DNA from: a virus
Direction: 5' to 3' (one strand)
Length of the DNA: 64,000 bases
Virus record (IMG/VR): IMGVR_UViG_3300017991_000009
Coordinates: 1 to 64,000 of that record
Shown here: piece by piece, positions 1,872-23,479 of the stretch
Numbering within the stretch: the first letter of the stretch is position 1
Layout of the letters: every line of letters starts with the position of its first letter
Made by a program: the position numbers and the translations under genes
The notes under the pieces: generated by a model
What the model was told of the DNA's origin: nothing
What the model saw: only the letters and a program-made list of their open reading frames with translations
The model's database searches: none

Positions 1872-3812
1872 GTGGCTTCCTGCTGGCTAAGAGAAGTGAA
1901 GGATACCAACTCAGGTGAATCGACAGGCACACCGTTCTTCCTCAAGTGTCTGGCCTGGTTCCTGGTTCGGATATGTGGCTTCACCAACTACACCAACGGT
2001 GCTAACGATGAAGACTTCCTGACAAGCGTATCGAGCGGTACGGATGGAGAGTTCAACATCAGCGGTACCGACAAGGACTTCAGGGACACCGTGGCATCGG
2101 GGTTCACTGCTGGTATGGTGAACAACTGGTTGGTCGTAGCGGATGCAAACAGGTTGAACGCTGGCATCTATAAGATCACAGCGTTCATCGACGCCACGAG
2201 AGTCACGCTCGATTTCAGGAGCGGGGCCGCGGAGTATCCCGTGCAGACCACCGGGGTTGATTGGTGGGTGATATCTGCGACGCCGGCGGCGGCCACCGGG
2301 ACGATCTCTGGTAAGGACGGCACCACCGTATCGGACGGTGACTGGGTGCGTGTCGATGACGGTGACTCGATCAATGACGCGAAGGTGGTCATCCTCAGCA
2401 GGGCCGACCCGGGGACGTACACGCCCAACAACTGGCGTGGTGGCGTGCTCCCCGACAACCCCGTAAACGTCAACAACCGCCTGGTGGGGAAGACGGTCAA
2501 CTTCACGGTCGCAGGGTCAGCCAAGTCCTGCACCTTCACTGGTAGCAGCCCACTGCCACTGGCGACCATCGTGAGTCAGATCAACACGGCCGCTGGATCT
2601 ACGGTATGCCACATCGGCACCTCGAGAGGCTACGAGACGACAGGCGGGAAGTACATCATCTGGCGTACCCAGATCGGCGGCGTGTGGGGTAAGCCCAACG
2701 ACCCGCCTGCCTCGGATGGTAATGACATCACGGTGCAGGAATCGGGTAGCACTGCATGGGAGGATCTCGGGTTCTCTGGGGGCGGTGACCGCTCAAACCC
2801 GTACCTGGCCCAGGGGCATCGCACGGTGGATAACAATCCCGATCCTGACTGGGACGATGCCTCCGAAGTCGCGGAGATGATCAAGGATGAGTACAACGGC
2901 CACAACTGGCTGACGGCTAACAGGACGGGGTCGACGGTCAACCTGACCAACACCAAGGATGGGGCCCACGGGAACAAGACGATCGAGTCTGGGGGTATCA
3001 GTACCTCGGGCATGACCGGCGGTTCCCTGGGTACGATGGAGGGTAACTACTTCCGCTGCAGGACGCCGCACGCCAACGGCTGGGAGATCGAGGTGGAGTA
3101 CGTCGGCCTCCCGGAGGCGGGCTCGTATCAGTTCGTCCAGGTCAGGGTGTCCACCAACGGTGACTGGGCTGTCGGTTCGGGTAAGGTGCTCGGCCCCATC
3201 AAGTTCGGTTGCCCGGATAGCCGAGACATGTGGTTCTACGCCTTCGGAGACGACGCCGGCGAGTACGTTACCCTGATGGCCCACAACAACACCGACGGGG
3301 CCTACATCGGCAGCATTGTGGCGAACATCGTCCCGTCTGACGCGGGGCTCTCTACGGCTGAACAGGTGGCGCTGATGGGATGCAAGGACCTGGGCGCATC
3401 TGAACCGACCTACGACCACTTCCTCCGGGACTACAACGACAACCGGCTGGGTCACGGGTACATGTGGTGGGACCGGGTGACTGACCAGGTGGAACTCTAC
3501 ATGGTCGATCTTTCCTACTACGAATATGGGGACTCGCTCACGCAGTGGGGCTCCAGGGAGGTCAACGCGAGGCGGACGAACGCCGCGGGCTTCGATCAGG
3601 AGGACGTGATCGCCGGTACCTACGTCGTGGCCGATCCTGCGAACGAGGACAACCACTACAGCATAGTGGGCAAGCTCTCGGGACTGTATTCGGTGCGGGA
3701 GCAGGTGGGCGCACGGACGACCTTCGATGAAGCATCCTCTGGAGCCCAGGACTTCTTGCACGTGCAGGACGGTCTCGCCTTCGAGTGGCCGGAAGTAACA
3801 CCTCAGCACTAG
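1872..3812 (+). CDS. Putative tail/virion structural protein (paralogue B, with large central insertion)
   Basis: In-frame GTG at 1872 after GGAGAGG gives an N-terminus matching paralogue A (ASCWLRE vs ASRWMRR); shared C-terminal motifs MVD.SYY and GTY...DP.NE.N.Y..GK. Confidence 0.6.
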   Translation: MASCWLREVKDTNSGESTGTPFFLKCLAWFLVRICGFTNYTNGANDEDFLTSVSSGTDGEFNISGTDKDFRDTVASGFTAGMVNNWLVVADANRLNAGIYKITAFIDATRVTLDFRSGAAEYPVQTTGVDWWVISATPAAATGTISGKDGTTVSDGDWVRVDDGDSINDAKVVILSRADPGTYTPNNWRGGVLPDNPVNVNNRLVGKTVNFTVAGSAKSCTFTGSSPLPLATIVSQINTAAGSTVCHIGTSRGYETTGGKYIIWRTQIGGVWGKPNDPPASDGNDITVQESGSTAWEDLGFSGGGDRSNPYLAQGHRTVDNNPDPDWDDASEVAEMIKDEYNGHNWLTANRTGSTVNLTNTKDGAHGNKTIESGGISTSGMTGGSLGTMEGNYFRCRTPHANGWEIEVEYVGLPEAGSYQFVQVRVSTNGDWAVGSGKVLGPIKFGCPDSRDMWFYAFGDDAGEYVTLMAHNNTDGAYIGSIVANIVPSDAGLSTAEQVALMGCKDLGASEPTYDHFLRDYNDNRLGHGYMWWDRVTDQVELYMVDLSYYEYGDSLTQWGSREVNARRTNAAGFDQEDVIAGTYVVADPANEDNHYSIVGKLSGLYSVREQVGARTTFDEASSGAQDFLHVQDGLAFEWPEVTPQH

Positions 3813-3821
3813 GACTAGCTC

Positions 3822-4865
3822 ATGACCTGGACGGGGAAAACAGCCGAATACGAGGTACTCAATGCCGATCGGCAGGGTAGCGTCCCACTGTGGTCAGAGT
3901 ACGTCGAGCCTACGACCGCTGAGAGGTTGCTGGTAGCGGATCTCGATCGGCAGGGTAGCGTCCCACTGTGGTCAGAGGCGGTTGCTGATCCGGTGTCCTT
4001 CTCTATCAGCAAGGCGGAGAAGGTCAACACCACACCATATGTAAAGACAGCGAACCTCAACCCGGCCCCTAGTGAGATCGACGTAGACCCCGTGACGGTG
4101 GTTGTCGGCATTCCTATCGGTGATGTCGTCCCCGAAACCGAGTACGGTGTTGACGCGGCGGGATCGACGATGCCTCACCCGGACACCGAGGGTGTAGGTG
4201 TCTACGACAGCCAGTTGAAGATCTACGTGGACCAGGGGAGCGGGTTTGCGGTCATCTACCAGAACGGTGCGGCGCAGGGTGGTTGGGGGGTATCGAAGCC
4301 TACGAATGATGAATACGGCTTTGACTACGCCTTCACGCCGCCTCCGGGAGGGCTCACCCCCAATCAGTTGATCACAGTGAAGGTGGAGCTATACGACTAC
4401 ACCAACACCTTCACCTGCTACGAGTATACGTTTGAGACAGGATCCTCTGATCCCAATCCGCCGTGGATCATTGATGCCCTGCCTGTGCCGAACTCGAGCA
4501 CCGCGGAGAAGGATGACCCGCTCTCCTTCACGATCGCTGACGACGTGACTGGGGTAGCCCCCGACACGATCGTGATTTACGTGAGGGGCCTGATGGTGTA
4601 CCGCGGGTCCACGGGAGAGCGGCCGACTGGATGGCGCGGGACGATCGTTGCGAACACTCTGAACCTCGGTTTCGATCTGGTGTTCTATCCGGACAGGGAG
4701 TACCAGTGGTACGACGGCGAGGTGGTCAACGTGAGGGCTGTAGCCCGTGACTACGAAGGAAACCTGATGGACACTACGTGGCAGTTCGCAGCCGTGAACA
4801 AACCCTTCAGGACGCGGGTGTATCAGATGCTACTGAGGTCCATCCGCAAGTTCGACGAGAGTTAG
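3822..4865 (+). CDS. Virion protein with two Ig-like beta-sandwich domains
   Basis: Repeated P.I....P.P...D.P.SFTI.D..TGV and V.V...DY..N patterns; tail context. Confidence 0.55.
   Translation: MTWTGKTAEYEVLNADRQGSVPLWSEYVEPTTAERLLVADLDRQGSVPLWSEAVADPVSFSISKAEKVNTTPYVKTANLNPAPSEIDVDPVTVVVGIPIGDVVPETEYGVDAAGSTMPHPDTEGVGVYDSQLKIYVDQGSGFAVIYQNGAAQGGWGVSKPTNDEYGFDYAFTPPPGGLTPNQLITVKVELYDYTNTFTCYEYTFETGSSDPNPPWIIDALPVPNSSTAEKDDPLSFTIADDVTGVAPDTIVIYVRGLMVYRGSTGERPTGWRGTIVANTLNLGFDLVFYPDREYQWYDGEVVNVRAVARDYEGNLMDTTWQFAAVNKPFRTRVYQMLLRSIRKFDES
3866..3977 (+). repeat. Perfect 34-bp direct repeat (3866-3899 and 3944-3977), in frame
   Basis: CGATCGGCAGGGTAGCGTCCCACTGTGGTCAGAG twice, period 78 bp; encodes DRQGSVPLWSE twice. 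Confidence 0.9.
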
Positions 4866-4887
4866 CTTATCGGAGTACGATAAGCTA
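4863..4887. repeat. Dispersed 25-bp palindrome, copy 1
   Basis: TAGCTTATCG-GAGTA-CGATAAGCTA beginning on the TAG stop of 3822..4865. Confidence 0.9.
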
Positions 4888-4897
4888 TTAGGAGGAA

Positions 4898-6490
4898 GTG
4901 ATGATTCTCCCAGAAGGCGGCATCCTTGAGAAGGTCTGTTACCTCATCGACAGGGTATGGGAGGACCTCATCTACGATCGCTGCACCGACCTCCCCACCC
5001 TGTTCAAGCCTGACGAGATAGACAAGAAGTGGCTCCCCTACCAGCTACCACTGGTAGGCTTCACGTCCGACCTCCCCTTCGATGCCAACGAAGAGGAGAT
5101 GCGGCGCATGATGGAGAACGCGATCACCTACTGGAACGAGAAGCCCTCCGAGTACGGGGTGATCGATCTAGCCATCAAGATGATCACCGGCAACAATTAC
5201 CGGGTGCGCGGGTACCACGACTTCAGGATGCAGGAGAGCGAGACGTGCTTGACGGAGGAGCTTGCCGGGCTCGACCCCAACGTCCTGGACTTCCCGGCCA
5301 AGAAGTACATAGGCGCGCAGGCTCTCATCACGACGGCCAACACCTTCATGATCGTCGACCTCCCTGGTGGAGGTTTCATCAACCCTGACGACTTCTCGTT
5401 CCTGGTGTTCACCTACGACTCCATCGATCCGAACAACGAGGCTATCTACGAGATCGATTCGTTGAACCCGCCGGCGGCGACCGGCACCATTAAGGGTTCC
5501 TTCAACAGTGTACATATGGGGTACATCAACTGGGAGTTGATGGGGTATATGGACGACTTCGTGTCGGAGGTCAGAATCGTTGATGAGGGAGAGGGAGATC
5601 TCTACTACGACAACCTCGATCCTGGGAACCCCACCTTCTCGGTTGGCGATCAGGTGCACGGCATGACATCAGGCGCGCACGGTGTGATCACCGCGAACCA
5701 GTATGAGGGCGGCCTCGGGTTGATGTCCCTGCGCCATCTCTTCCGCAGGTTCCAGGACGACGAAGTGATCCGGGCAGCGAGCGGGGCCAACGCTACCTCA
5801 AGGGGTAAGCTGCAAGGCATACTCAACCGCGACCTCCTGCGGTTCCTGATGGGTGGTGATACCCAGAAGCCCTTCAGCGAGCGAATCGACGTCGTGTACG
5901 TAGACCTGCTGGATGAGTTCCTGACTGCAGGTGATCTCGACCAGTGGATCATCGGGAACTATGGCGCCGGCGCGGAGCCTTCTGTCCCCTCTCCTGGTGG
6001 CGATCTGCTACTCGACACCGATGCGTGGGTGCTCTTCGATAAGACCCGGGCCTACGAGTGGGAGGACATGATCGCCTCCAGCAAGTGGTACGTCGACACG
6101 GCCGACTGTTATCCCAGGATGCACTTCTGGGTGAACAGCGGCGCGACGGAGGGGTGGTATGTTGGGATCGACTACTCCACCAAGACCCTCCACCTCGGAG
6201 AGTTTAACGTCGCCGGCGTCTCCTTCTCTCACCCGGTACCGTTCGTCAAGGAGCAGGTGCCAGACGTGATCAGGGTCACCGCTCTTCATGAGAGTACGGG
6301 GGTCCGCATCAAGGTGGCGGTGGATGGGGAGGAGTACATCAACCAGTACGTCGCTTCCCCCTATAGTAACGAAGGTTCTGTGGGGGTAAGAGGCGGCGGC
6401 ACGACCCTCGGAACCGATCTCAGTAGGTGCCGACTCATCGAAGCAAACGTGCTACCATCAGAAGGTGATCGGGTTGGACCACTGCCATAG
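4898..6490 (+). CDS. Baseplate wedge/tail protein (P2 gpI-like N-terminus, lectin-like C-terminus)
   Basis: L..PDEID.KWLPY...VG....EEMRR...AI.YW.EK resembles the phage tail protein I pattern; AGGAGG RBS. Confidence 0.6.
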   Translation: MMILPEGGILEKVCYLIDRVWEDLIYDRCTDLPTLFKPDEIDKKWLPYQLPLVGFTSDLPFDANEEEMRRMMENAITYWNEKPSEYGVIDLAIKMITGNNYRVRGYHDFRMQESETCLTEELAGLDPNVLDFPAKKYIGAQALITTANTFMIVDLPGGGFINPDDFSFLVFTYDSIDPNNEAIYEIDSLNPPAATGTIKGSFNSVHMGYINWELMGYMDDFVSEVRIVDEGEGDLYYDNLDPGNPTFSVGDQVHGMTSGAHGVITANQYEGGLGLMSLRHLFRRFQDDEVIRAASGANATSRGKLQGILNRDLLRFLMGGDTQKPFSERIDVVYVDLLDEFLTAGDLDQWIIGNYGAGAEPSVPSPGGDLLLDTDAWVLFDKTRAYEWEDMIASSKWYVDTADCYPRMHFWVNSGATEGWYVGIDYSTKTLHLGEFNVAGVSFSHPVPFVKEQVPDVIRVTALHESTGVRIKVAVDGEEYINQYVASPYSNEGSVGVRGGGTTLGTDLSRCRLIEANVLPSEGDRVGPLP

Positions 6491-6502
6491 TAGGAGCGAA
6501 CG

Positions 6503-9025
6503 ATGCCAACGAACGACCGCAAGATCAATATCTACGAAAAGAGGCTGTTTAGCCTCACCGCCATCAAGACCAACTTCCTCGACTTCTTGTCGGACGAGTT
6601 GGACGAGGTGGTGTCGGCTATCTTCCAGGGGACAGCGGGCGTCCTGGATGACGAAGAGATCGGGCTCCTGGTCGACGGGGCTAACAACATCTTCAAGCTG
6701 GACCTGACGAACGCGAGCCGAGTGGTGGTAGGGACGGGGCAGATCATTGACCTGTCCCAGATCACCGGCAGCAGTATCACCGAAGGCATCCAGTGGGAGG
6801 ATGACGGTAGCTCACCGTACTACGTTGGCATCAAGTTCATGGAAATGCCTGACGGTATCGAGACCAACCCGCGGTCAGGGGACCCGGAGTACCCATCCCT
6901 CAAACAGACCTACGGCGAGGTTGATTACCCCGACTCGGTGACCGACAACACCACCTATATTCGCCTCATTATCAACTCCATCACGGAGAGCGGAGTTGAT
7001 CACAGCGGGCGGACGATCAGGGTGTGGTTGGTCGATCCGGTGAGCCACACGGAGGCGGTCGCTTACTTCGAGGGGACCTCTGGCTACGCCGGCGGCAACA
7101 ACTACGTCGACATCCCCTACAGCGGCGCGAACGGCCCGCTCGGCCAGGACACCAGCGTGAACCCGCCTAGCACGACCGCAGTCGACTACAAGGTGGCGAT
7201 CGAGGGTGCCACGTGGAGGAAGAACACCGACCTGCGAACCGACAGCGACTATGCTTTCATCGGTATCATGAACAGCACGGGTGGGGTGCCGACCTTCAAT
7301 CTCTCGGACCAGATCCCGATCTTCATCAACACCCTAGACCGCGCTTACGACGGTGCGACCGGCAGTGGCTCCGGCCGTAGGATCTGGGTGGACGGTGGCG
7401 CGGTAGAACTTAGAACTACTAGCGGGGCGTCTGGCGATAACATGAGAGGCCAGTTAAGATTAACAAGGGATGGTAGCACTGAAGATTCACAGTTTATGCT
7501 CCAGATGATAATGGAGGATGAGACCACTATCCCTATTGCAGTACTTGAACCATTGAGAGACGGGTCTGCACTACAGGAATTGGAGCCAGTGATCTTTAGC
7601 GGATCCTCCGTTGTATTTACACGCGGTGGTATTGATCTTGAGGACCTTGGCCTTAGAGTTAATCCGAATATACACTTGTTGTTAATAAGTAGTGCTGACG
7701 ATTCATCTGACGATGGTTTGTACTTAATTAATAGTGTTGCCTCATCTAGTGTTATTGGTGTAAGGGACCTTGATGGGAACGCCTTCTTCTTTACGGCAAC
7801 AACTGGGCAAGCGACTATTTTACACCCGGCACTCGTTGTTACAAACTCTGTACCTAACTCCCTTGTAGGAAGTGGGGTACTTGATTATTGGACTGGCTTC
7901 CTGTTCACCCTACGTGATGGTCAAAAGAATGATCGTACAATGCGCGTCCTACCGGAAAAAGGCGGGACAATTATTGTTTATGACCATGGGCATAGCAGTC
8001 CGTCAACCTACCCTGATGACATCCGGCCAAGAGAACTCATCGTGATCGATCCCGATGCGGTAGGGCAAGACCTCGAGTGGCCTATTATCTTTAAGCGGAG
8101 TGTGTTGATTAATGGTGGTCTGGCCTCGGGCGCAACTGGGGAAGAGAGTTATTACGCTAGGGACGGTCTCCGTATTTACAACAGCGGCAGCGCTTATGAT
8201 GACCGAGACCCCACCTTTGGTTTCGTAATGGATTATGGATGGCCCGAGAACGTCCCCACCCTACATACCTGGCCGTCTTTCGCTATAGATACGAGTGGCG
8301 GAGTGTGTAGGGGGCACAACTTCAGGGATGACTTCCTAGAGTACCCGCATGACGTATCGGGATCCTTGACTAGTCTCGGCCCGTATCTTTTCGCGTCGAG
8401 TGGCGGTGTAGGTGCTCTCACCGTGCCCGATATCCGAGATGGTGCGGGGTACGGTCACGGTTGTGTCGAGATCGCAACGCCGGCAGTGGCTGGCGCCTCC
8501 GCCGAGTTGTACCAGTCCTGTGTCTCCTATAACCTTGACACCAACTACGACTTCCGCTGGTCTTACAGGTCACGTGTGAAGTTGATGGATAGCGCCGATG
8601 TAAAGTACGCCCATGGGTTCTTCCAGTACAGGGGAGGATCACCCGCCGATACCCGGCGATTCTTCTTCTTGATGAACGACGATGGCAACTGGTACGGCGT
8701 ATGGGAGGAGGGCACGTCGCAGTATATGACTAGCGCGATTTGTGGGTTTGACGTAGGGGAGTACCAGTGGTTTGGGATATCTATATCCCCCATCTCGGCG
8801 ACCTTCGTTATCGCAAGTAAGGACAACGGGGCCAACCGTAGCGGCAGCGAGTATGCCAGCATTGCCAGCATGGGTGGGGCTGTTGGTGCGATGGGCCTCA
8901 GTGCTTACGCCATAACCGTAGGAGTGGCAGTGGAAAAGTCCATGGTGCTGGACTACTGGGAGGTGTGGGACAAGGAGGTTTTGTACGGACGCTTTGGTAC
9001 TAGCCACAACCAGCAGCACCCATAG
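6503..9025 (+). CDS. Tail fibre / receptor-binding protein
   Basis: 840 aa directly after the baseplate gene; TLDRAYDG..GSG.GR.I.VDGGAV fibre-like motif; beta-rich C-terminus. Confidence 0.65.
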   Translation: MPTNDRKINIYEKRLFSLTAIKTNFLDFLSDELDEVVSAIFQGTAGVLDDEEIGLLVDGANNIFKLDLTNASRVVVGTGQIIDLSQITGSSITEGIQWEDDGSSPYYVGIKFMEMPDGIETNPRSGDPEYPSLKQTYGEVDYPDSVTDNTTYIRLIINSITESGVDHSGRTIRVWLVDPVSHTEAVAYFEGTSGYAGGNNYVDIPYSGANGPLGQDTSVNPPSTTAVDYKVAIEGATWRKNTDLRTDSDYAFIGIMNSTGGVPTFNLSDQIPIFINTLDRAYDGATGSGSGRRIWVDGGAVELRTTSGASGDNMRGQLRLTRDGSTEDSQFMLQMIMEDETTIPIAVLEPLRDGSALQELEPVIFSGSSVVFTRGGIDLEDLGLRVNPNIHLLLISSADDSSDDGLYLINSVASSSVIGVRDLDGNAFFFTATTGQATILHPALVVTNSVPNSLVGSGVLDYWTGFLFTLRDGQKNDRTMRVLPEKGGTIIVYDHGHSSPSTYPDDIRPRELIVIDPDAVGQDLEWPIIFKRSVLINGGLASGATGEESYYARDGLRIYNSGSAYDDRDPTFGFVMDYGWPENVPTLHTWPSFAIDTSGGVCRGHNFRDDFLEYPHDVSGSLTSLGPYLFASSGGVGALTVPDIRDGAGYGHGCVEIATPAVAGASAELYQSCVSYNLDTNYDFRWSYRSRVKLMDSADVKYAHGFFQYRGGSPADTRRFFFLMNDDGNWYGVWEEGTSQYMTSAICGFDVGEYQWFGISISPISATFVIASKDNGANRSGSEYASIASMGGAVGAMGLSAYAITVGVAVEKSMVLDYWEVWDKEVLYGRFGTSHNQQHP

Positions 9026-10242: not shown

Positions 10243-10582
10243 GAAGGCCCCCTTCGCTGGGGTGCTCCTCACCGACGCCGCCTTAGCTCGTATCATTACC
10301 GGCTACGAGAAAAAGCTGAAGGAGCAAGCGGCTACGATCGAAAAGCTCAAGAGGGGGCACGCGGCCGAGAAGAAGTCGGCCGACGCGATTTGTGCGGTGA
10401 AGGTGATCAAGGAGCAGGCGAAGTACCAGGCCTGTACACTGGACCGTGAACGCCAACGAGAGATCTACCGCAAGGCACTTGACTCCAAGAAGTGCCCACA
10501 CCCCGCCTGGAACTACGTCTCGTTCATCGCAGGAAACATCGTAGCAGGTGGCATCTGCGCCGCCATAGATAGGACCAGATAG
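10115..10582 (+). CDS. Secreted coiled-coil protein, putative non-canonical o-spanin partner
   Basis: Signal peptide ending SAFA-Q with no lipobox Cys; coiled coil; C-terminal hydrophobic segment; overlaps the Rz-like gene. Confidence 0.45.
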   Translation: MSTRGWRRILLPLMLSLIASSAFAQPKTKTPTPTEKARLQKGKKAPFAGVLLTDAALARIITGYEKKLKEQAATIEKLKRGHAAEKKSADAICAVKVIKEQAKYQACTLDRERQREIYRKALDSKKCPHPAWNYVSFIAGNIVAGGICAAIDRTR

Positions 10583-11158
10583 ATGACGATTCATGGAATG
10601 ATGATGGCCCCTGGTGGTGGCGCAGGAGGTGGTGGAGGGAGCGACGATAGCAACAACAAGAAACCTAACCCCGAGGCTCCGAGGCGGCCGTCAGGCACAG
10701 CCTACCCAATGGTAAGCCCGGACGACTCGGTGCCGCACACCCCTATAGTGAAGAAGGAAGAGGATGAAGTCATGGTGCCTATGCCTGTCGTATTAGCAAA
10801 GGGCACCTTCATGAAGTTCGCCTTCCTGTTACTGGGGTCGTTGTTGGTAAGCGTGTCGGCGATTCTAGCGTTCTACTGGAAGCATCACTTTGAGTTCAAG
10901 ACCCACATCGGTGACCAGACCATTCACCTGACGAGCGGAGAGCGCGCTACTCTGGAAACGAAGAGTGAGGCGCAAGCAAACCGCAAGATGATGGTGGAGC
11001 AGGTGAAGCGGGAAGTTGAGTACAAGCACCGCGAAATTGTGTTGAAACAGAAGGAGCAGATCCAGAAGATTGGCGAGGAGCTACAATCCTCACAAGAAAA
11101 GAAGCTGAATAGCATCCTCAACGAAGTTAGGCGCACGCGCCGCGCAGTTAGTAACTAA
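10583..11158 (+). CDS. Membrane-anchored coiled-coil protein
   Basis: One central TM helix followed by coiled coil. Confidence 0.55.
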   Translation: MTIHGMMMAPGGGAGGGGGSDDSNNKKPNPEAPRRPSGTAYPMVSPDDSVPHTPIVKKEEDEVMVPMPVVLAKGTFMKFAFLLLGSLLVSVSAILAFYWKHHFEFKTHIGDQTIHLTSGERATLETKSEAQANRKMMVEQVKREVEYKHREIVLKQKEQIQKIGEELQSSQEKKLNSILNEVRRTRRAVSN

Positions 11159-15343: not shown

Positions 15344-16005
15344 CACACCGAGGGATCGTATCGCATCCTCACAGCCCTGTATGTAAGTAGCATGACATTC
15401 CGACAGCATCCTCCGACCGTCCTCGCCATCGAGTAGCCTCAAATCAGCCTAACTAATTGAAAGTGCAGTGGAACTTTTTCACTGCATATGCAACGAACTT
15501 CTTGCATTCTGAGTAACCTTCCGTAAAATAGAATATGGATGCAATACATACCGACATCATGGCAAATAAGGCCCCTCAGCAAGCAAGTGAAACATTGCTT
15601 GGTGGTGTCGCGGGATTCAATGAAATCCCAAGAGAAGGCTCCCGGATACAAGCAATCTTCCGCAATGGCGCATTGTAGCTCCGGGTTGGAATCAAGCTTA
15701 CTTAGCTCTGCTCGCTTTCGATAGCAAGCAGAGCTAGATCGATCATCAAGATCGATTGCTCGAGTGATTCGCGATTCCAAAAAGCTAGATCAAAGCGATT
15801 TAGCGCCGACGGCCAGCAGGTGAAATGATCTGCAAAGCGTAAGCTATGTCTCGCGCTTTTTCTTTGTCTGAATTCCAGACAAGCTCCCAGATTGAAACAC
15901 CGGGAAGGAAGTTCACTGAATCGTGAGGAGGTGGTTCCCACGATTCAGTGAACGCACATATGTCACCACCTCATGGTTTGTTGGTGGGGCAGGCGAGGAG
16001 CTTTC
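15344..16005. promoter_or_regulatory. Long lower-GC non-coding control region with several hairpins (candidate early promoter/leader)
   Basis: No convincing ORF; TTGCAT-N16-TAAAAT at 15502-15529; inverted repeats at 15464-15486, 15703-15736 and 15911-15953. Confidence 0.6.
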
Positions 16006-16089
16006 GGGTTGTTCGCCTGTCCCTTGATGCCCTTTCGAGTAGAGGGCATCAAGGGGCAATGGAGCCCCCAACAACGTCAGAGGTGACAA
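16006..16089 (+). ncRNA. Structured intergenic element E1 (degenerate copy)
   Basis: GGGTT..[TGTCCCTTGATGCCCT/AGGGCATCAAGGGGCA stem]..ATGG-AGCCC, then CAACAAC and GAGGTGAC before the ATG. Confidence 0.6.
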
Positions 16090-16305
16090 ATGAAGAACGA
16101 CCCCTTCGATACGACAGGAAAGAAAGCTTGCTCGCACTGCAACGGTTACGGATCTTCGCTCAAGGAGCCTGGCAATCGCTGTTCGGTTTGCAATGGCACG
16201 GGCCTGGTTCCGGATTACGAGCACTGCAAGATCTGCAAGGGCGTGCTTGCTGCCGACCCCGAGAGCGGCGAATTGTACTGCACCGAGTGCGGGAGGGTGC
16301 AGTGA
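16090..16305 (+). CDS. Small Zn-finger protein (DnaJ-type CxxCxGxG repeats)
   Basis: CSHCNGYG, CSVCNGTG, CKIC, CTEC; strong RBS. Confidence 0.75.
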   Translation: MKNDPFDTTGKKACSHCNGYGSSLKEPGNRCSVCNGTGLVPDYEHCKICKGVLAADPESGELYCTECGRVQ

Positions 16306-16406
16306 TGGATAAGGATAAAGACAAGCTGGACTTTGCGGATTTCATCGGTATCTATATCTCGATCGTGATTCTCATCACGATCGCCGGTCTGCTACGCGGC
16401 TGTTGA
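16305..16406 (+). CDS. 33-aa membrane peptide
   Basis: GGGAGG RBS; single hydrophobic helix; coupled to the upstream stop. Confidence 0.5.
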   Translation: MDKDKDKLDFADFIGIYISIVILITIAGLLRGC

Positions 16407-16478
16407 TTGTTGCTAGGGCTCACCCACTGGGTGGGTCCACTGGAGCAATCAAGCTCCCAACAACGAATGAGGTGACAC
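16403..16478 (+). ncRNA. Structured intergenic element E2
   Basis: TTGATTGTT-GCTA-[GGGCTCACCC/GGGTGGGTCC]-ACTGG-AGCAATCAA-GCTCC-CAACAAC..GAGGTGAC. Confidence 0.8.
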
Positions 16479-17660
16479 ATGACGACAAGAGTGAAGAAGC
16501 AACGCAAGCCCGCTCCCAAGCTGTCGGTGCAGGACAAGCTGACCAAGCTCCGCGAGGAGATGAACGAGGCGCTGGTGGAGAGGACGGACGAGGTAGACGG
16601 CCTCTTGGTGGCCCTGCTGGCCCGGGAGCATATGCTCCTGTTGGGCCCTCCAGGGACGGCTAAGACGCTGATGGTGGAGCTTGCCAGCAAGGCGATCGAC
16701 GGGTCGTCGTATTTTTACTGGTTGATGTCGAGGTTCACGGTGCCCGAAGAGTTGTTCGGGTCGTTCAGCCTGAAGGCCCTCAAGCAGGACAAGCACGAGA
16801 GGGTCACCGGCGGCAAGCTCCCCGAAGCCTCGATCGCGTTCTTGGACGAGGTGTTCAAAGCTAACTCGGCAATCCTTAACAACCTGTTGACGCTGATCAA
16901 CGAGCGAAAATTCCACAACGGCGGCCAGGCACTCGACGTCCCCCTGGAGACGATGGTTGGGGCGAGCAACGAGCTACCAGAATCAGGCGAGTTGGACGCC
17001 CTCTACGATCGCTTCCTGCTGCGCTACTGGACTTCGTACATATCAGACCGCGGGGCGTTCAAGGATATGTTGATGAACGGCGAGCCGATGATCTCCACAA
17101 CGCTGACGATGGCGGAGCTACAGGCTGCGCAGGAAGAGGCCGACCAGGTGGTCATCACCGAGGACATCCTCGACCTTCTGGTTGAGGTAAAGCAGGCTAT
17201 CGAGAAGGCGGGCTTTCTATGCAGTGACAGGCGATGGGTCAAGTGCTTGTGCCTGCTGCAGGCACACGCTTACCTGAACGGTCGGAGCGAGGTGACGGAA
17301 GAGGACCTGATGCTACTTCGTCACATCCTCTGGAAGGAGCCGAAGGACAGAGGGGAACTGGGACGGGTGATCGCGAAGGTAGCTAACCCGCTGGCGCACG
17401 AGTGCCAGGTTATCCTGGATGCGTGCAAGGAGACGTACAGGGAGATCCCCTTCAACGAGCAAGTGGAGGAAAGCAGGTCGGCAGAGGTCTTCACCCAGGT
17501 AGTGGAGGCCAACGGGCAGTTCAAGCAGGCGGTGGAGAAGTTGAAGAAGCTTGCTAACGGCAAGCGGAGCGGGGTGGTGGAGAGTGCGGTTGACGAGATC
17601 GAAACCATGATGACCGAGGCCGGCCGGTTTGCTGGCAAGGTCAGCGGGCTTTCTATCTAG
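16479..17660 (+). CDS. MoxR/RavA-family AAA+ ATPase
   Basis: LLGPPGTAKT, SRFTVPEELFG, FLDEVFKANSAILNNLL, GASNELP, LYDRF, SDRRW. Confidence 0.95.
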   Translation: MTTRVKKQRKPAPKLSVQDKLTKLREEMNEALVERTDEVDGLLVALLAREHMLLLGPPGTAKTLMVELASKAIDGSSYFYWLMSRFTVPEELFGSFSLKALKQDKHERVTGGKLPEASIAFLDEVFKANSAILNNLLTLINERKFHNGGQALDVPLETMVGASNELPESGELDALYDRFLLRYWTSYISDRGAFKDMLMNGEPMISTTLTMAELQAAQEEADQVVITEDILDLLVEVKQAIEKAGFLCSDRRWVKCLCLLQAHAYLNGRSEVTEEDLMLLRHILWKEPKDRGELGRVIAKVANPLAHECQVILDACKETYREIPFNEQVEESRSAEVFTQVVEANGQFKQAVEKLKKLANGKRSGVVESAVDEIETMMTEAGRFAGKVSGLSI

Positions 17661-17743
17661 GTACCAATGTTGCAACCTGGCCCTTCAGAAGAGGGGCCAG
17701 TGTGGAGCAGTGGTGCTCCAACCAACCCAACAGGAGGTGACAC
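17661..17743 (+). ncRNA. Structured intergenic element E3
   Basis: GTACCAATGTT-GCAAC-[CTGGCCCTTC/GAGGGGCCAG]-TGTGG-AGCAGTGGTGC-TCC..GGAGGTGAC. Confidence 0.8.
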
Positions 17744-18895
17744 ATGGCAACGAAAGCACAGTCAGAGATCAACCGTATCGCGAAGGCTATGGCCAGCACG
17801 GACGCGCCCCACATCGGCAGTATCTGTATGTGGACGCTTACGGGCTGCAGGATCAACCGAGACGACTTGATCAAGCTGTACAAGAAGCACGGCCTGGACG
17901 AGGCTTGGTTGCCCCCAGAGATTGAGGGCAGCGTGGCCTTCACTAAGGCTTTGCGATGGGCGCAGCGTGGCGATCGGCAGGGCTACATGATTCGGCCGAT
18001 CGACGACACCAAAGAGGCAATCATCGTGGGCATTGTGAAGGAGGACGTGGACAAGCCGAAGGAAGACCTGGCCTACGGCGTCGAGGCGAAAGTGAAGTAC
18101 AACAAGGAGCACGAGTCGGTGCAGGTAACTGATTCAAAGCACCCCCTGGCAGGTCGCATCAAGGCCTTGTTCACGGAGATGCAGGAGGCGTACATCGGCC
18201 GGGACTTCACGAGGATGCTCACCAGGAACATTGCCAAGCGGATGGGGTCTATCTGTTTGCGGCACACGGGTGGCGTCTACTTCGTTCCTGTACATCACAC
18301 CGAGACACTGCTGAAACACAGGGCGGTGATGTCGGAAATCGGCGCCGAGTTCTCGGTGCTGCCGGTATATGGGAACGACCTCTCCAAGGAGGACCTGGGG
18401 AAGCAGGCGCGACGCGCGTTGGAAGAGGAGATCAAAGAGGTGGAGGCGGAGATCCAGAAGTTCAAGGAGACCGCCCCGCGCGGCGATACCCTCAAACGCC
18501 GGCTGGAGGAGTTCAAGGAGTTGAAGAAGCGGGCGCAAATGTACGCCCAACTTCTCCAGATCAAAGTGGTCGACATCAACCAGGGGCTGGGGGACTGCGA
18601 AAAGCAGATCAAGGCAATCCTGGGTGTAGTCGAGAAGGAGAAGGGTGAGAAGAAGGGCCGCCGGCGTAAGACGGAGAAGAAGGATACGGAAGCGGTGCCG
18701 AAGGTCAAGAACGTAGTGAAGTCCAGGAAGAAGGCTCCAGCGAAGAAGGCAACGAAGAAAACCCCCGCCAAGAAAGCACCGGCAAAGAAGGCGCCGAAGA
18801 AGAAAGTCCCCGCCAAGAAGAAGGCGCCAGCCAAGGCCAAGGAAGAAGTGATCTCTGATACCGGCAAGGTGAAGATCGTGAAGGTGAAGAAGTAG
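17744..18895 (+). CDS. Coiled-coil protein of the MoxR/VWA cluster (DUF6744-like) with a histone-like PAKKA tail
   Basis: LR.TGGVYFVP motif; position between AAA and VWA genes; KKAPAKK repeats. Confidence 0.6.
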   Translation: MATKAQSEINRIAKAMASTDAPHIGSICMWTLTGCRINRDDLIKLYKKHGLDEAWLPPEIEGSVAFTKALRWAQRGDRQGYMIRPIDDTKEAIIVGIVKEDVDKPKEDLAYGVEAKVKYNKEHESVQVTDSKHPLAGRIKALFTEMQEAYIGRDFTRMLTRNIAKRMGSICLRHTGGVYFVPVHHTETLLKHRAVMSEIGAEFSVLPVYGNDLSKEDLGKQARRALEEEIKEVEAEIQKFKETAPRGDTLKRRLEEFKELKKRAQMYAQLLQIKVVDINQGLGDCEKQIKAILGVVEKEKGEKKGRRRKTEKKDTEAVPKVKNVVKSRKKAPAKKATKKTPAKKAPAKKAPKKKVPAKKKAPAKAKEEVISDTGKVKIVKVKK

Positions 18896-18972
18896 CTTGA
18901 GTGTTGCTAGAGGGCACCATCTCTGGTGCCCTCACTGGAGCAATCAAGCTCCCAACAACCAGAGGTGACAAT
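18894..18972 (+). ncRNA. Structured intergenic element E4
   Basis: AGCTTGAGTGTT-GCTA-[GAGGGCACCA/TGGTGCCCTC]-ACTGG-AGCAATCAAGCT-CCCAACAAC..GAGGTGAC. Confidence 0.8.
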
Positions 18973-20424
18973 ATGGGCAAATTATCTAGAGAGGACCTGG
19001 TGTACAAGGTATCTCGTTGGCAGCGGTACCTGTACGACAGTGAGCGGGATCATAACAAGGGCCTGCAAGCTGCGGAGAAGGATGGCAGGGGCCGGGCGAA
19101 TCGGTACCCCGACTATCAGCGGGAGTTGTTCTCTAGGCTTTACAACCCGCGCACCAAGAAGTTGGACGAGCCCGCGGCCGACAGTGAGTGGGCCCAGAAG
19201 CTTCACGGGACGGCCGAGGGGGTGCCGGAGTTCAAGGTGCTGCAGGACAGGTGCAAGGGCGACGAGGTTTGGTCTGGGATGGCCACCACCACCCTGAGTA
19301 AGCAGGTGTCGGCCACGATGGAAAAGAGGCAGTCGAAGGAGGACATCCCCGACCTGGAGCGGCGAGTGCAAGGGCTCTCCGACCTGATGTCAAAAGGGGT
19401 GCAGGTGGGTAAGAGGCTGAAGGCTGCCCAGAAGCGGTTGGAGAAGGCGAAGGCTGAGGCACAGGAGATGGCCGAAGGTCTTGACCCGGTAGCTTTGAGG
19501 CAGGCCATCAGGAAGGGGTGCGAGCAGGCGCAGGAAGAGATCGGAGAGATGGATAAGGCAGTTGAGTCGTTCAGCTACGGTACGGAGCCTGGGGCGCCGG
19601 CGAGGCTGGGCAACGCAGAGGCAAAGCGGAAGCTTGCCAAGCGGATCAAGGCGAGCCCCAAGCTTTCCAAGATAGCGGAGCTTGCAGGGCGACTCAGGCG
19701 GGTGGCAGCGGAGAAGCAACGCAGCAAGGCGAGTGACAGCAGGAGCGAGGTCACTGATATTGAGCAGGGCAACGAGATCGATCGCCTGCTCCCCAGCGAG
19801 TTGATGGACTTGCTCAACGGGGGCGGGGGCGAGAGGGAGTTGATGTTCTATTCCCGCTTCTTGGATCGGCAGTGCTTGCAGTACAAGCTGTCGGGCAAGG
19901 AGAAAGAAGGTAGAGGGCCGATCGTCATCTGTATGGACGAGTCGGGCAGCATGGGTGGTGACCGAGAGGTGTGGGCCAAGGCGGTGGCGTTGGCCCTGCT
20001 CGAGGTCGCTAACAGGCAAAAGAGAACGTGGGCGTTTGTTCACTTCGACACCAGAGTGACCCGCACCGATGTGGTGCCCCATGGGAAGATCGACACCGCG
20101 GCCCTGATGGACTGTATGGAGCACTTCAGCGGGGGCGGTACAAGCTTTCAGGCACCGCTAGATCAGGCGGTAGAGATCATCAGAGGCGATAGTGAGATGA
20201 AGAAGGCAGACGTTCTCCTGGTTACCGATGGTTACTGCTCAACCAGCGACGACTGGGACAAGACGTTCGCCAGGAAGAAGGAGGAGTTGTCGTTCCAAGT
20301 GTTCAGCGTGATGGTGGCCATGGGTGGCGGCAGCTATGGGTCGGTGGAGAAGTGGAGCAACCAGATCTTCCCGATCAACGAGTTGCTGGAGGACAAGTTC
20401 CACGATGTGATGTTCAGTGTTTGA
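18973..20424 (+). CDS. VWA-domain protein (ViaA-like partner of the MoxR ATPase)
   Basis: RLLPSEL, MIDAS motif GPIVICMDESGSMGG, GGGTSF, ADVLLVTDG; start reassigned to ATG 18973 after the RBS. Confidence 0.92.
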   Translation: MGKLSREDLVYKVSRWQRYLYDSERDHNKGLQAAEKDGRGRANRYPDYQRELFSRLYNPRTKKLDEPAADSEWAQKLHGTAEGVPEFKVLQDRCKGDEVWSGMATTTLSKQVSATMEKRQSKEDIPDLERRVQGLSDLMSKGVQVGKRLKAAQKRLEKAKAEAQEMAEGLDPVALRQAIRKGCEQAQEEIGEMDKAVESFSYGTEPGAPARLGNAEAKRKLAKRIKASPKLSKIAELAGRLRRVAAEKQRSKASDSRSEVTDIEQGNEIDRLLPSELMDLLNGGGGERELMFYSRFLDRQCLQYKLSGKEKEGRGPIVICMDESGSMGGDREVWAKAVALALLEVANRQKRTWAFVHFDTRVTRTDVVPHGKIDTAALMDCMEHFSGGGTSFQAPLDQAVEIIRGDSEMKKADVLLVTDGYCSTSDDWDKTFARKKEELSFQVFSVMVAMGGGSYGSVEKWSNQIFPINELLEDKFHDVMFSV

Positions 20425-20499
20425 TTGTTGCACCCCTGGCCACCACTAGCTGGTGGCCAGTATGGAGCAATCAAGCTCCCGCAAACAGGAGGTGACGAT
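20421..20499 (+). ncRNA. Structured intergenic element E5
   Basis: TTGATTGTT-GCACCC-[CTGGCCACCA/TGGTGGCCAG]-TATGG-AGCAATCAA-GCTCC..GGAGGTGAC. Confidence 0.8.
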
Positions 20500-21105
20500 A
20501 TGATGCACCCAACACACAAAGGGTACGTGGTCAACAATTACACTGCACTTGTCAACGAAAAGGGACAAGCGCAGGTAACGCTCCCGAAGGGAAGCCACTT
20601 CGATCTTGAGAAGGGGCAGATCTTCGGGCTCACTGGGGCAATGGCAATCTGGAACGGTGAGCCACCGCCTTGGTGCGCCTCAGTGGTCAGGGTCAAGGGC
20701 GCAACCGAGCCCTGGGCTGATCTGCCGAAGCGGGCCAAGACCGTCCTGTGGTGCAGGGAGGAGCTTCCTGATTCGCTTGCACGCGAGTTGGATTCCCTCT
20801 CAAGGTTCTTTGGGGATGCATGCTTTGACCTGGCGGACAAGTGGACCTACCCGGAGAAGTGGGCAGAGTTGAAAAAGGCTGGTGTGAGGGACATCAAGGG
20901 AGCCCTGGCCGATGAAATCTACAACGACGTGAATGCGGCGGAGGACCTCTTGGGGGACCAAATGCACAACGCCTTCTACTCTTCAGGGAACAAGGACAAG
21001 CTGAACCTCTTGTGGAACAAGGCAGCGAGGTATGTTGCCGACACGCTCCCGCATATCAAGGGCCTGTTTGCTCGCCTCGCTCAAGGGGAGGTGTGCAATG
21101 CCTAG
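20500..21105 (+). CDS. Hypothetical protein
   Basis: Strong RBS at the end of E5; typical codon usage. Confidence 0.7.
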   Translation: MMHPTHKGYVVNNYTALVNEKGQAQVTLPKGSHFDLEKGQIFGLTGAMAIWNGEPPPWCASVVRVKGATEPWADLPKRAKTVLWCREELPDSLARELDSLSRFFGDACFDLADKWTYPEKWAELKKAGVRDIKGALADEIYNDVNAAEDLLGDQMHNAFYSSGNKDKLNLLWNKAARYVADTLPHIKGLFARLAQGEVCNA

Positions 21106-21391
21106 CCGACGATATGTTCCACTGCACGAACACCTTGCGATTGAGTACGCCAAGAACGACCTCGGATATTCCAGCCCGGAGGTCTATGGGAACCAGCTTG
21201 ACCCGCAGGTGAGGGAGATCTCGGCGGTGTGGTTGAGGGATCAAGACAATCCCGACTACGACATTGGGTTGATAGTTCACACCAAGGACGGAGTACTGGA
21301 GGAGTTTGACCCAGCTATCGACGGGAAGCCCGGTGAGTTACAATCAGGTAGTAACTGCGACTTATCGCGGATGCGGATGGAGGTATACTAA
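21098..21391 (+). CDS. Hypothetical protein
   Basis: GGAGGTG RBS; overlaps the upstream stop. Confidence 0.65.
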   Translation: MPSRRYVPLHEHLAIEYAKNDLGYSSPEVYGNQLDPQVREISAVWLRDQDNPDYDIGLIVHTKDGVLEEFDPAIDGKPGELQSGSNCDLSRMRMEVY

Positions 21392-21582
21392 TGGATCCGG
21401 ATGCGAACCTGAAGGAGCAGTTACAACTTGCTGCCGCGCTTGAGGACGTGGACTACGATCAACTGGACGAGAACTCGAAGGAGGCGGCCATCTCAGATGC
21501 CTGCCGCTTGGCCGAGCTTGTCCTGGCCCTCGACGAGTGGATCTCAAAGGGTGGGTTCCTGCCCAAGCTTTGGAGTAGGTGA
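21391..21582 (+). CDS. Small phage protein (MDPDA.L...ALDEW.SKGGFLP..W type)
   Basis: TAATG coupling; GGAGG RBS. Confidence 0.7.
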   Translation: MDPDANLKEQLQLAAALEDVDYDQLDENSKEAAISDACRLAELVLALDEWISKGGFLPKLWSR

Positions 21583-21672
21583 GTGTTGCTCGAGGTCGTT
21601 AGCTTATCGTACTCTGATAAGCTAACGGTCTCCCTGGAGCACTTACGCTCCCAACAACGAAAGAGGTGGCAT
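21579..21672 (+). ncRNA. Structured intergenic element E6; its upper stem contains palindrome copy 2
   Basis: GTGAGTGTT-GCTC-[GAGGTCGTTAGCTTATC/GATAAGCTAACGGTCTC]-CCTGG-AGCACTTAC-GCTCC-CAACAAC..GAGGTGGC. Confidence 0.8.
21600..21624. repeat. Dispersed 25-bp palindrome, copy 2
   Basis: TAGCTTATCG-TACTC-TGATAAGCTA. Confidence 0.9.
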
Positions 21673-21963
21673 ATGGTAACGATCAGAGTGCAGGGCAACC
21701 TAAAGGAGTGCAACGGCGATCACATCCTGGAGTTCATCACGTTCCTGAACAACAGGCAGGTGGTTCTCTTGGTCAGCAAGCTGGATGAAGATGGGGTCAC
21801 CCTGAACCTGTTCCGCGGTGTGCTAAGGCTGGCGTTCAACGTCGCGGCGTCAGAGCAGGACCTCCCGATCACCTCGGGTGAGGTAGAGGGCCTCTTGGGC
21901 GCCTGGGTTGACAAGGCAGCAACGGAGGGCCGGCCGTTGTGGAAGTATGAGGTGCTCTCATGA
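21673..21963 (+). CDS. Hypothetical protein
   Basis: ATG after the E6 RBS. Confidence 0.65.
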   Translation: MVTIRVQGNLKECNGDHILEFITFLNNRQVVLLVSKLDEDGVTLNLFRGVLRLAFNVAASEQDLPITSGEVEGLLGAWVDKAATEGRPLWKYEVLS

Positions 21964-22166
21964 AGGGCGAAGTGATCTACAGGGCCCCTGAAGGCGGAGG
22001 GGTCTGCCCCTCCTGTGAGGCTGTGATGGAGGTGTACTTCACCTTCAAACCTGGTACCACGCACAAGTCGATCAAACAGTTTGAGATAGACAACACCATA
22101 CACATGAAAGCGATCGGCGAGGTGGCGAGGTGCAGGAACTGCGGGTACTCCGAGAGGCGAGGGTAG
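21960..22166 (+). CDS. Small zinc-ribbon protein
   Basis: CPSC...CRNCG; ATGA coupling. Confidence 0.65.
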   Translation: MKGEVIYRAPEGGGVCPSCEAVMEVYFTFKPGTTHKSIKQFEIDNTIHMKAIGEVARCRNCGYSERRG

Positions 22167-22246
22167 CCAGCACTGCTTGATCTCCTGAGTGAGTAGGCTC
22201 GGGGGATCGCTGGAGTGCTGGGCCCGTCACCTCCCCGGCAGACTCC

Positions 22247-22297
22247 CAGCAACCCCAGGAAACGGTAATGGTGTACGCCCTGGGGTTGCTGTATTTT
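22247..22297 (+). terminator. Hairpin, possible terminator of the early operon
   Basis: 13-bp stem CAGCAACCCCAGG/CCTGGGGTTGCTG with a long loop, then TATTTT. Confidence 0.45.
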
Positions 22298-22299
22298 GC

Positions 22300-22530
22300 C
22301 TGTATATACAGAGGTGAAATCCTGCAAACCAAGCACACGACCTAAGTTATCGAAAAGTATAAACAAAAACTGCTGACAATCTATTATCTGGTATATAGCA
22401 CATAGAACATTGATCTTAGATCTTTGATCTTTCCTTCTTTTTATTTGTAAAGAAGAAAAGAAAATATAAGGAAGAAAATATAAAGATACATAGCAATAGA
22501 ATATATACGGTTACGTGTATATACACCAAA
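22300..22530. promoter_or_regulatory. Very AT-rich non-coding tract bounded by TGTATATACA palindromes (promoter or origin candidate)
   Basis: T-rich then A-rich runs at 22420-22500; TGTATATACA at 22301 and 22516. Confidence 0.55.
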
Positions 22531-22545
22531 CCCAGGAGGTGACGA

Positions 22546-22962
22546 ATGAAAGTGAGCACAGCATACAACCACAGGGAGCGTGCACTGCAAAGCCTGGCGG
22601 AGATGTATCAGCACGCTAGGATGTTCGGCATGACCGCGCAGGCGATGAACGAGAGGCGGGTCGAGATCCTAAAATCGATCAACCACTGCCCAGGATGGGT
22701 GCTCTCGTACATCTCAGGATGGGAGAGGGCGATCTCGGCAGAGGTCTACCGTGAGCAGGTCTTCTTCTACACGATGCCCGATGGTTCCCTGGTGAGCAGT
22801 CACAGAGATCGTGACGACTACTACGAGAAGAAAGGCTGGGGCCCGAGGGAGGTCTACGAGCAGGCAATCGAGTGCGGGCACTACTGGATCATCAACGGCA
22901 AACCGAAGCCGTATTCGGTTAGCCCTAACGAGTACAAGAAGGAGGTGGCGAATGCTGGATAG
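22546..22962 (+). CDS. Hypothetical protein
   Basis: AGGAGGTGAC RBS. Confidence 0.75.
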   Translation: MKVSTAYNHRERALQSLAEMYQHARMFGMTAQAMNERRVEILKSINHCPGWVLSYISGWERAISAEVYREQVFFYTMPDGSLVSSHRDRDDYYEKKGWGPREVYEQAIECGHYWIINGKPKPYSVSPNEYKKEVANAG

Positions 22963-23407
22963 GAAAGCGGGATGCAAGTCCCGATCATCGTGCGAGATGC
23001 GTGAGTGGCTAGACAGTCTCCGGGACGAGTTGGAGAGGTCGTCCGCTCTCGCTTCAGGTGTGCACAAGTTGGCAAGGCAGACGCTTGCCATCATGGACTT
23101 CATCCGCGGGGTGGAGCACAAGGAGGAACTCGGTGGGGCTCACCCCGACCTGCTTGACTTGAAGATGAAGTACGCACACAAGAACGAGCAGGGCCAGGTC
23201 GAAGGTGTGGAACTCGATCTCAGTGAGGCCGGGCTGTCCATGATGGTGGCCCTTGAGATCCTGATGCCGATGTTCGTCTTCCTCATGGACTCGCTGCAGG
23301 AGTGTGACGCCCAGGCTCAAGACCTCTACCGGGCGGTGGAGAAGTTCAAGGTGGTGAAGCAACACATGGCCTCACCAGAGGCGGACCCGGAAGACCGCCC
23401 TAACTGA
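22952..23407 (+). CDS. Hypothetical protein
   Basis: AAGGAGGTG RBS before ATG 22952. Confidence 0.65.
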   Translation: MLDRKAGCKSRSSCEMREWLDSLRDELERSSALASGVHKLARQTLAIMDFIRGVEHKEELGGAHPDLLDLKMKYAHKNEQGQVEGVELDLSEAGLSMMVALEILMPMFVFLMDSLQECDAQAQDLYRAVEKFKVVKQHMASPEADPEDRPN

Positions 23408-23440: not shown

Positions 23441-23479
23441 GCCCCCGGCCTTCCTTCGTGGAGGGTCGGGGGCTTTTTT
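23441..23479 (+). terminator. Rho-independent terminator
   Basis: GCCCCCGGCCTTCC-TTCGT-GGAGGGTCGGGGGC followed by TTTTTT. Confidence 0.9.

Follow-up and report, generated by a model that had tools for sequence, protein, structure and literature searches.

The window analysed here, the first 64 kb (positions 1 to 64,000) of the IMG/VR virus record IMGVR_UViG_3300017991_000009, contains an operon that is punctuated by six copies of an RNA element, five of them strong and one leader-type, each 84-102 nucleotides (nt) long and all on the + strand between positions 16008 and 21675. The complete phage record comprises 95,166 base pairs (bp) with 57.5% guanine plus cytosine (GC). On the evidence of reciprocal covariance-model searches, the window elements are members of the RNase III site family of phages SP82 and SPO1, and they are probably mRNA-processing signals of the SP82/SPO1 type, at which host RNase III would cut the polycistronic phage message. 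A previous reading of the DNA from its letters alone (the sequence-only reading) had proposed a candidate new processing or switch system; this claim of novelty is refuted because the element matches an already described family, with the SPO1 sites RS-A to RS-F as its members. The family was reportedly first described in 1983 by Panganiban and Whiteley (Cell 33:907), as the host RNase III cutting sites of SP82 and SPO1. Rfam holds no model for this family, to which what had been presumed to be a new RNA system is now assigned.

Every copy opens at an upstream stop codon or no more than 7 nt from one (the stop lies 0-7 nt into the element) and closes at the next ATG, and single-sequence folding gives a two-tier hairpin (z-scores between -2.8 and -5.7). 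In the window, exactly five matches to the pattern TGTTGC-N20-50-TGGAGCA are found, always on the + strand (at 16408, 17668, 18902, 20426 and 21584), against 0.11 in shuffles, and the rest of the 95,166-bp record has none. A covariance model for which these five copies were the only input (R1) scores them at 75-92 bits, and also finds the leader copy at 16008-16092, which was outside its training set, at 45.7 bits (E 4e-10); over the 95-kb genome, nothing beyond the six copies exceeds 16.4 bits. The sequence-only reading had described copies that run from the upstream stop to the next start, with a degenerate additional copy near 16006, and all six were recovered, the last of them by R1. Its description of the layout was likewise borne out: a lower stem, TGTT followed by GC, a variable upper hairpin (10-18 bp, G-U pairs included), N-TGG followed by AGCA and the 3' arm, and then GCTCC, a C/A-rich linker, GAGGTG(A/G)C and ATG.

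The kinship with SPO1 was found in both directions. GenBank entry AF031901, the SPO1 terminal redundancy, carries six annotated 'RNAse III site' features, RS-A to RS-F. When both strands of this 11.5-kb sequence were searched with R1 (E <=0.1), six matches of 18.5-33.4 bits were obtained, comprising RS-A at 33.4, RS-C at 32.3 and RS-B at 23.8 bits (identical coordinates), RS-D at 19.0 bits, and two unannotated look-alikes; RS-E and RS-F were not recovered by R1 in AF031901. Conversely, a second covariance model (R3), whose sole input was the six SPO1 sites, detects the window copies that begin at 18892 (60.7 bits), 16398 (53.9 bits), 20416 (36.9 bits) and 17658 (35.1 bits), with no other match at E <=0.1 in the 64 kb, and it also matches six of the metagenome lineages described below. 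The letters common to the window and SPO1 sites are GUUGCUAG, a hairpin, and then AUGGAGC. The covariance-model search of phage genomes recommended by the sequence-only reading was positive not only for the SPO1 sites but also for Bacillus phage Shanette, which has six sites in its first 20 kb according to R1. The search of Rfam 15 that it had also recommended identified no family for the element in the 64 kb, with no match at the gathering thresholds and three chance matches to microRNA precursors (19-21 bits) at E <=5.

Four of the SPO1 sites overlap the 3' end of a gene: RS-C that of gp57, RS-D that of gp45, RS-E that of gp43 and RS-F that of gp41. The unannotated hairpins of AF031901 (L365) that have the same core are located at 10506-10598 on the minus strand, between gp58 and gp57 and overlapping the annotated terminator TL2.7, and at 4104-4179 on the plus strand, between promoter PE5 and gp44.

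The two-tier fold and its alternative

The fold was assessed in an alignment of 20 rows (A4), one of which is a reverse-complement artefact, so that the resulting figures for pairing and covariation are slightly conservative. Pairing is found in 91.2% of cells as compared with 65.7% in shuffles, both sides change in 17 of the 21 pairs, and the covariation score is 0.688, versus 0.215 in shuffles and 0.10-0.18 in slid controls. The element functions as RNA from the gene strand: every copy is on the coding strand, and a conserved U-G wobble (18 of the 20 rows), together with the many G-U pairs of the upper stems, means that the fold exists on the transcribed strand only.

Nucleotide numbers were taken from a hand-built register of 22 copies, in which lower-stem positions 4-8 are occupied by pairs of the types TA, GC, AT, CG and GT. 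The lower stem is 9-13 bp long and contains or abuts the upstream stop, and the upper stem is 10-18 bp long and free in sequence. Between the two is an internal loop consisting, in order, of a G-G mismatch, a C:G pair and a small loop; its nucleotides (5' G17 C18 and 3' U66 G67 G68) are invariant in all non-leader copies, including those that were not selected by pattern. The recognition core would be very small, being limited to the G-G mismatch, the C:G pair, and U-G-G on the 3' side. Covariation of the lower stem, which the sequence-only reading had claimed from the window copies, is strong, but its strength comes from the copies on other contigs; within the window it is modest. The arms of the copies at 16398 and 20416 are identical, and those of the copies at 17658 and 18892 have one mismatch each.

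All six copies can be placed precisely on the + strand. The leader-type copy (16008-16092) forms the 5' untranslated region of the first gene, and is a nearly perfect hairpin of about 19 bp that lacks the G-G mismatch and has hardly any lower stem; after the hairpin come CCAACAAC, the Shine-Dalgarno sequence (SD) and the ATG at 16090. The copy between a 33-amino-acid (aa) open reading frame (ORF) and the MoxR gene (16398-16481) has the stop codon TGA (16404-16406) inside its 5' arm (16403-16411), then GC (16412-16413), U66 (16441), the 3' arm (16444-16452) and the ATG (16479). In the MoxR/DUF6744 copy (17658-17746), the stop TAG is at 17658-17660, the arms are at 17660-17671 and 17706-17717, and the ATG is at 17744, and in the DUF6744/VWA copy (18892-18975) the corresponding features are TAG at 18893-18895, arms at 18894-18905 and 18939-18950, and ATG at 18973. 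The copy between the VWA gene and a gene of 201 aa (20416-20502) has TGA at 20422-20424, arms at 20417-20429 and 20466-20478, and ATG at 20500. Finally, the copy between genes of 63 and 96 aa (21574-21675), with an upper hairpin of 18 bp, has TGA at 21580-21582, arms at 21579-21587 and 21638-21646, and ATG at 21673.

The 3' arm has a second potential partner downstream, and the resulting hairpin excludes the lower stem. The mutually exclusive GGAGC-N6-GCTCC hairpin that the sequence-only reading had noted in five copies is present in all five, at 16442-16457, 17704-17719, 18937-18952, 20464-20479 and 21636-21651 on the + strand, and in the leader copy (16053-16068, +) it is compensated to GGGGC-N6-GCCCC, with pair probabilities of 0.98-1.0 in the 3' product. 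In predicted 3' products that begin at U66, the small hairpin has a probability of 0.88-1.0 in all six window copies, and it is also predicted in most other lineages, with the SD unpaired. Compensated versions are found in copies outside the pattern selection, namely GGGGC/GCCCC in the leader copies of the window and of the related contig L183, GGGGC/GCCUC in L187 (1426-1519), and GGUGU/ACAUC in L211 (1284-1371). The combination U16/A69/U80 is replaced by C/G/C in L187b and in the leaders of the window and of L183, and by A/U/A in L211b, and because U16 also changes (to C or A) in these copies, nucleotide 69 covaries with two mutually exclusive partners. The hairpin is absent in two L183 copies.

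Counterparts are present in SPO1 and Shanette. The 3' products predicted for the SPO1 sites begin with a 5'-terminal UGG-AGCC...GGCU-A-CUA hairpin that has a bulged A, and Shanette keeps this SPO1-like bulged-A hairpin by compensation, with AGC/GCU replaced by AAC/GUU twice and by AGU/ACU once. Judged by such patterns of substitution, the second fold is real, selected, and conserved across the SP82/SPO1 family, and compensatory changes have preserved it in several lineages, SPO1 and Shanette among them; Shanette is related to the SP82 and SPO1 phages that have been studied by experiment.

Occurrence in unrelated phages

A pattern scan of JGI metagenome contigs produced 70 matches, which R1 splits cleanly into 12 at 28-50 bits and others at <=18.5 bits. 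Stricter pattern scans of IMG/VR gave one true match (L237), and a scan of a species-genome collection gave at least one true match among the 120 matches listed, on a 3.4-kb contig (L296) of a Clostridiaceae metagenome-assembled genome (MAG). A 17-mer of the AT-rich group returned two chance matches only in an IMG/VR scan. In all, the element is carried by at least seven phage-like lineages of 35-65% GC between which no shared proteins were detectable by protein comparison: the window phage with L183; L184, L215, L218, L159 and L296; L206 with L200; and L187, L208, L211 and L237 individually. L296 was outside the protein comparison, and was placed with the AT-rich group on the basis of its element sequence. 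The carriers with a known or binned host are those of Bacillus (SPO1 and Shanette) and the Clostridiaceae MAG contig.

In the other lineages, too, the element opens at the stop codon upstream of it and lies ahead of the following gene, and its neighbours are unrelated, encoding DUF932, AAA or NADAR proteins or uncharacterised proteins; a consistent link to MoxR and VWA genes was rejected on these grounds. With at least seven unrelated phage lineages, a GC content of 35-65% and unrelated neighbours, the range of the family extends well beyond the SPO1-like Bacillus phages.

One relative is L183 (Ga0315283_10025739), a 5.7-kb contig with four element copies on its minus strand. It encodes homologues of the window DUF6744 protein (about 40% identity), g63 (63%) and g68 (38%), and it has neither MoxR nor VWA; the order of its genes differs from that in the window. 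The genes between elements therefore differ between relatives, a point that the sequence-only reading had listed for checking. No related loci were found by the DUF6744 protein alone, and of the 26 distant loci (<=31% identity) found in an alignment search with DUF6744, none has the element.

A candidate cut-and-refold mechanism and its rivals

The SP82 members of the family are known from biochemical work. The SP82 targets of Bacillus subtilis RNase III (Bs-RNase III) are RNAs with internal loops, and the enzyme cuts them once, on the downstream side of the stem (PMC1935012); PMC4838370 treats the SP82 sites as recognised RNase III targets, citing Mitra and Bechhofer (1994). An SP82 segment is also described as a 5' mRNA stabiliser for downstream RNA (PMC7509114, PMC11805744).

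In the mechanism proposed here, each element would form one long two-tier hairpin in uncut RNA. By analogy with the SP82 RNAs, host RNase III would cut once, on the 3' side and near the invariant U-G-G, so that the upstream message would end in the upper hairpin. Once released from the lower stem, the 3' arm would refold on the GCUCC that follows it, and the downstream mRNA would begin with a 5-bp hairpin, followed by 10-18 unstructured nt, a strong SD and the ATG. Every cistron would in this way receive the same capped, open leader, and the leader copy, a duplex without the mismatch, would be trimmed to the same 5' end. The sequence-only reading had already suggested an RNase III-type cut near UGG and a protective 5' hairpin ahead of an open ribosome-binding site (RBS). 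Its hairpin stands, as it covaries and is predicted with a probability of at least 0.88, and the element belongs to a family whose type members are cut by purified Bacillus RNase III; the cut, its position and any stabilising effect in the window elements are matters that we infer by analogy.

Several points weigh against this mechanism. The phage encodes no RNase III or double-stranded RNA-binding domain (dsRBD) of its own among the phage proteins searched, so that a host enzyme would be required. B. subtilis RNase III is described as narrow in specificity, and a matching enzyme in the host of the window phage is an assumption. Most of the metagenome copies were picked by a pattern that fixes TGTTGC, TGGAGCA, N5 and GCTCC, with the stems unselected, and the conservation of those letters in the copies so picked is therefore by construction. 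The A4 alignment shows only two compensated cells for the alternative hairpin, the remaining support coming from a handful of non-selected copies. Lastly, the 5' stabiliser activity of SP82 has been credited to an RBS-like polypurine tract and not to a hairpin (PMC7509114).

A more elaborate version of the mechanism, which we consider doubtful, would make the element a translation-gated cut-and-refold device of the whole SP82/SPO1 family. RNase III would cut only while the lower stem is intact, with no ribosome terminating on the buried stop, and the freed arm would then form the selected 5' hairpin that caps the downstream message. If this were true, each cistron would have its processing and stability tied to the translation upstream of it. 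Such a design is undescribed for RNase III sites in the literature reached by this analysis.

The same position of the stop codon could be explained by a ribosome-actuated switch without cleavage, which is rather improbable. Here, a terminating ribosome would melt the lower stem and the 3' arm would flip to the small hairpin, resulting in translational coupling, with the base of the hairpin bringing the released subunit near the next ribosome site. In its favour, the stop codon falls inside the 5' arm or no more than about 3 nt away in the 16 internal copies with a confident upstream ORF, from the window, other lineages and SPO1, and the two folds are mutually exclusive and both covary. However, the leader copies, which have no upstream cistron, keep the alternative hairpin by compensation, and cutting therefore fits better than a ribosome-driven switch. 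Moreover, the SD is unsequestered in both states, and a role of GCUCC as an anti-SD was rejected, given that the arm becomes ACAUC in L211b while the SD is still GGAG. The type members of the family, furthermore, are cut by a purified nuclease (PMC1935012).

It is quite improbable that the element is instead the binding site of an RNA-binding protein, either a KhpA-like KH-domain protein of the phage or a translational repressor, that reads the GC/UGG loop. This possibility is compatible with the invariance of G17 C18 and U66 G67 G68 even in copies outside the pattern selection, although a conserved loop is equally explained as the recognition or cut site of a conserved host enzyme. The phage does encode a protein of the KhpA/KhpB type (window 38434-38835; PF13083 clusters, ESM Atlas), for which the nearest Atlas clusters are mostly cyanobacterial, with a score of 0.89, just below the lead threshold of 0.9; this is a lead only. 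A private protein partner is nevertheless unlikely because the lineages, at least seven in number, share no detectable proteins and have unrelated neighbours.

Function at the level of DNA is extremely improbable. In this explanation, the repeats would mark gene modules that can be swapped, serving either as recombination sites, attC-like or for cassettes, or as hairpin promoters. The L183 contig, which keeps the DUF6744, g63 and g68 homologues between elements while lacking MoxR and VWA and having an altered order, is in its favour, and such differences mean that the repeats may act passively as recombination joints. However, read from the opposite strand, the conserved G-U wobbles would turn into C-A; every copy is on the coding strand, and the element is fused to an RBS. 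The ssDNA cassette-recombination sites considered in the sequence-only reading thus find no support; integron attC sites were rejected because RYYYAAC/GTTRRRY cores are lacking, the arms read ..UGUUGC and GGAGCA.., and the G-U pairs are strand-specific, although no search for an integrase was made. A sigma-54 promoter was rejected by its spacing, which is off by one (GG-N9-GC in place of N10), and no sigma-70-like site overlaps the elements.

The least probable explanation, also raised in the sequence-only reading and likewise unsupported, is a small self-cleaving ribozyme between cistrons, for which the intercistronic position and defined 5' ends would be suitable, but which is contradicted by the lack of a Rfam 15 family at gathering or at E <=5, by an invariant set of about five nucleotides with a sequence-free upper stem and loop (too little for known catalytic cores), and by the need of the SP82 members for a protein enzyme.

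Other candidates were rejected on the basis of individual features. The terminator scan calls none of the upper hairpins as an intrinsic terminator; what comes after each of them is N-UGGAGCA rather than a U run. RNase P or tRNA-like 3' CCA processing does not fit, as only some lineages have CCA, and the loop letters are unsuited to K-turn, loop E and 11-nt receptor motifs. Finally, the GGAG sites of T4 RegB were rejected, given that variants carry GGGG or GGUG.

If cutting and refolding do take place as proposed, the elements would represent natural compact operon insulators that give the same protected leader to each cistron. They may then be of practical use in the design of Gram-positive expression systems and in the annotation of phage early regions.

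Genomic setting and comparison with known systems

The element-punctuated operon, as delimited by ORFs and Pfam, spans 16090-22166 on the + strand. It starts with genes for a Zn-ribbon protein (16090-16305) and the 33-aa ORF (16305-16406), which are followed by the genes for a MoxR-type AAA+ ATPase (16479-17660; PF20030, bpMoxR), a protein assigned by Pfam to DUF6744 (17744-18895) and a VWA protein (18973-20424). The closest relatives of the DUF6744 protein are P0002 (65% identity) and P0003 (43% identity). Five small + strand genes of no assigned product complete the operon, at 20500-21105 (201 aa), 21098-21391, 21391-21582 (63 aa), 21673-21963 (96 aa) and 21960-22166.

Ahead of the operon, window positions 15344-16005 comprise about 650 bp of non-coding DNA with a lower GC content, within which there is a perfect 15-bp hairpin (15911-15953) with AGGAGGT in its loop. 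At the other end, a 13-bp hairpin at about 22247-22291 is followed by UAUUUUG. The region 22240-22545 continues after the hairpin as a strongly AT-rich tract of about 240 bp that has repeated GAAAATATAA and the palindromes CTGTATATACAG and GTGTATATACAC, and the ATG of the next gene is at 22546; the region as a whole looks like a terminator combined with a promoter/operator or an origin. Further downstream, 3' of the gene at 22811-23407, a strong site resembling an intrinsic terminator (23441-23473) has a 14-bp stem with 11 G-C pairs and then TTTTTT, and is the top site of this kind in the terminator scan of 15.3-23.7 kb.

The phage has no close cultured relative, as judged by DNA and by DNA polymerase, the polymerase having a top identity of 26% to that of any cultured phage, and no tRNA genes are present in the 64 kb. 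The ends of the record (window 1-123 and record 95044-95166) form a 'direct terminal repeat' of just 123 bp. The genome may in fact be circular or circularly permuted and the repeat an overlap left by assembly, in which case the coordinates may be arbitrary.

Three known systems invite comparison. The early RNase III signals of T7 have the same general architecture, with a lower stem, an internal loop and an upper stem amounting to about two helical turns, and they are intercistronic and located just before an RBS. In T7 positions 1-8000, the top five R1 matches (10-18 bits) correspond to exactly five intergenic slots, 854-924, 1425-1498, 3099-3173, 5844-5924 and 6413-6477, which we take to hold the early RNase III sites R0.3, R0.5, R1, R1.1 and R1.3. 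However, the folded T7 sequences do not have the core of the SP82/SPO1 family, and the R1 scores are weak. The T7 sites are best regarded, by analogy of form, as an analogue of the element and not as its kin.

A second comparison is with 5' stabilisers of Gram-positive mRNAs, such as the polypurine, RBS-like element of SP82 (Hue et al. 1995) and the stem-loop of the aprE leader (PMC7509114, PMC11805744). There, a structure or ribosome site is similarly located near the processed 5' end, where the feature would protect against 5'-end-dependent decay. The difference is that the candidate protecting hairpin of the window elements would form only once a cut frees its 5' strand.

The closest comparison is with the SP82/SPO1 sites themselves, of which the SP82 RNAs have been cut by purified enzyme, whereas the window elements are known from their letters. 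The carrier here is an unrelated, uncultured phage of 95 kb with 57.5% GC, and the genes punctuated are a MoxR-DUF6744-VWA module rather than a host-takeover cluster of small genes. There are also differences in detail, in that the alternative hairpin is a clean 5-bp GGAGC/GCUCC in the window and has a bulged A (GG-AGC...GCU-A-CC) in SPO1 and Shanette, and where SPO1 has an A13-C72 mismatch the window elements have a U-A pair. Nevertheless, both sets of sites have a core of GUUGC, a variable hairpin and N-UGGAGC, closed by a covarying lower stem. In both cases the sites separate cistrons and lie on the coding strand; the upstream stop is inside or beside the 5' arm, and the following start codon is found about 30 nt past the stem. 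Both also occur in several copies per operon and have a 5'-terminal hairpin in the predicted 3' product.

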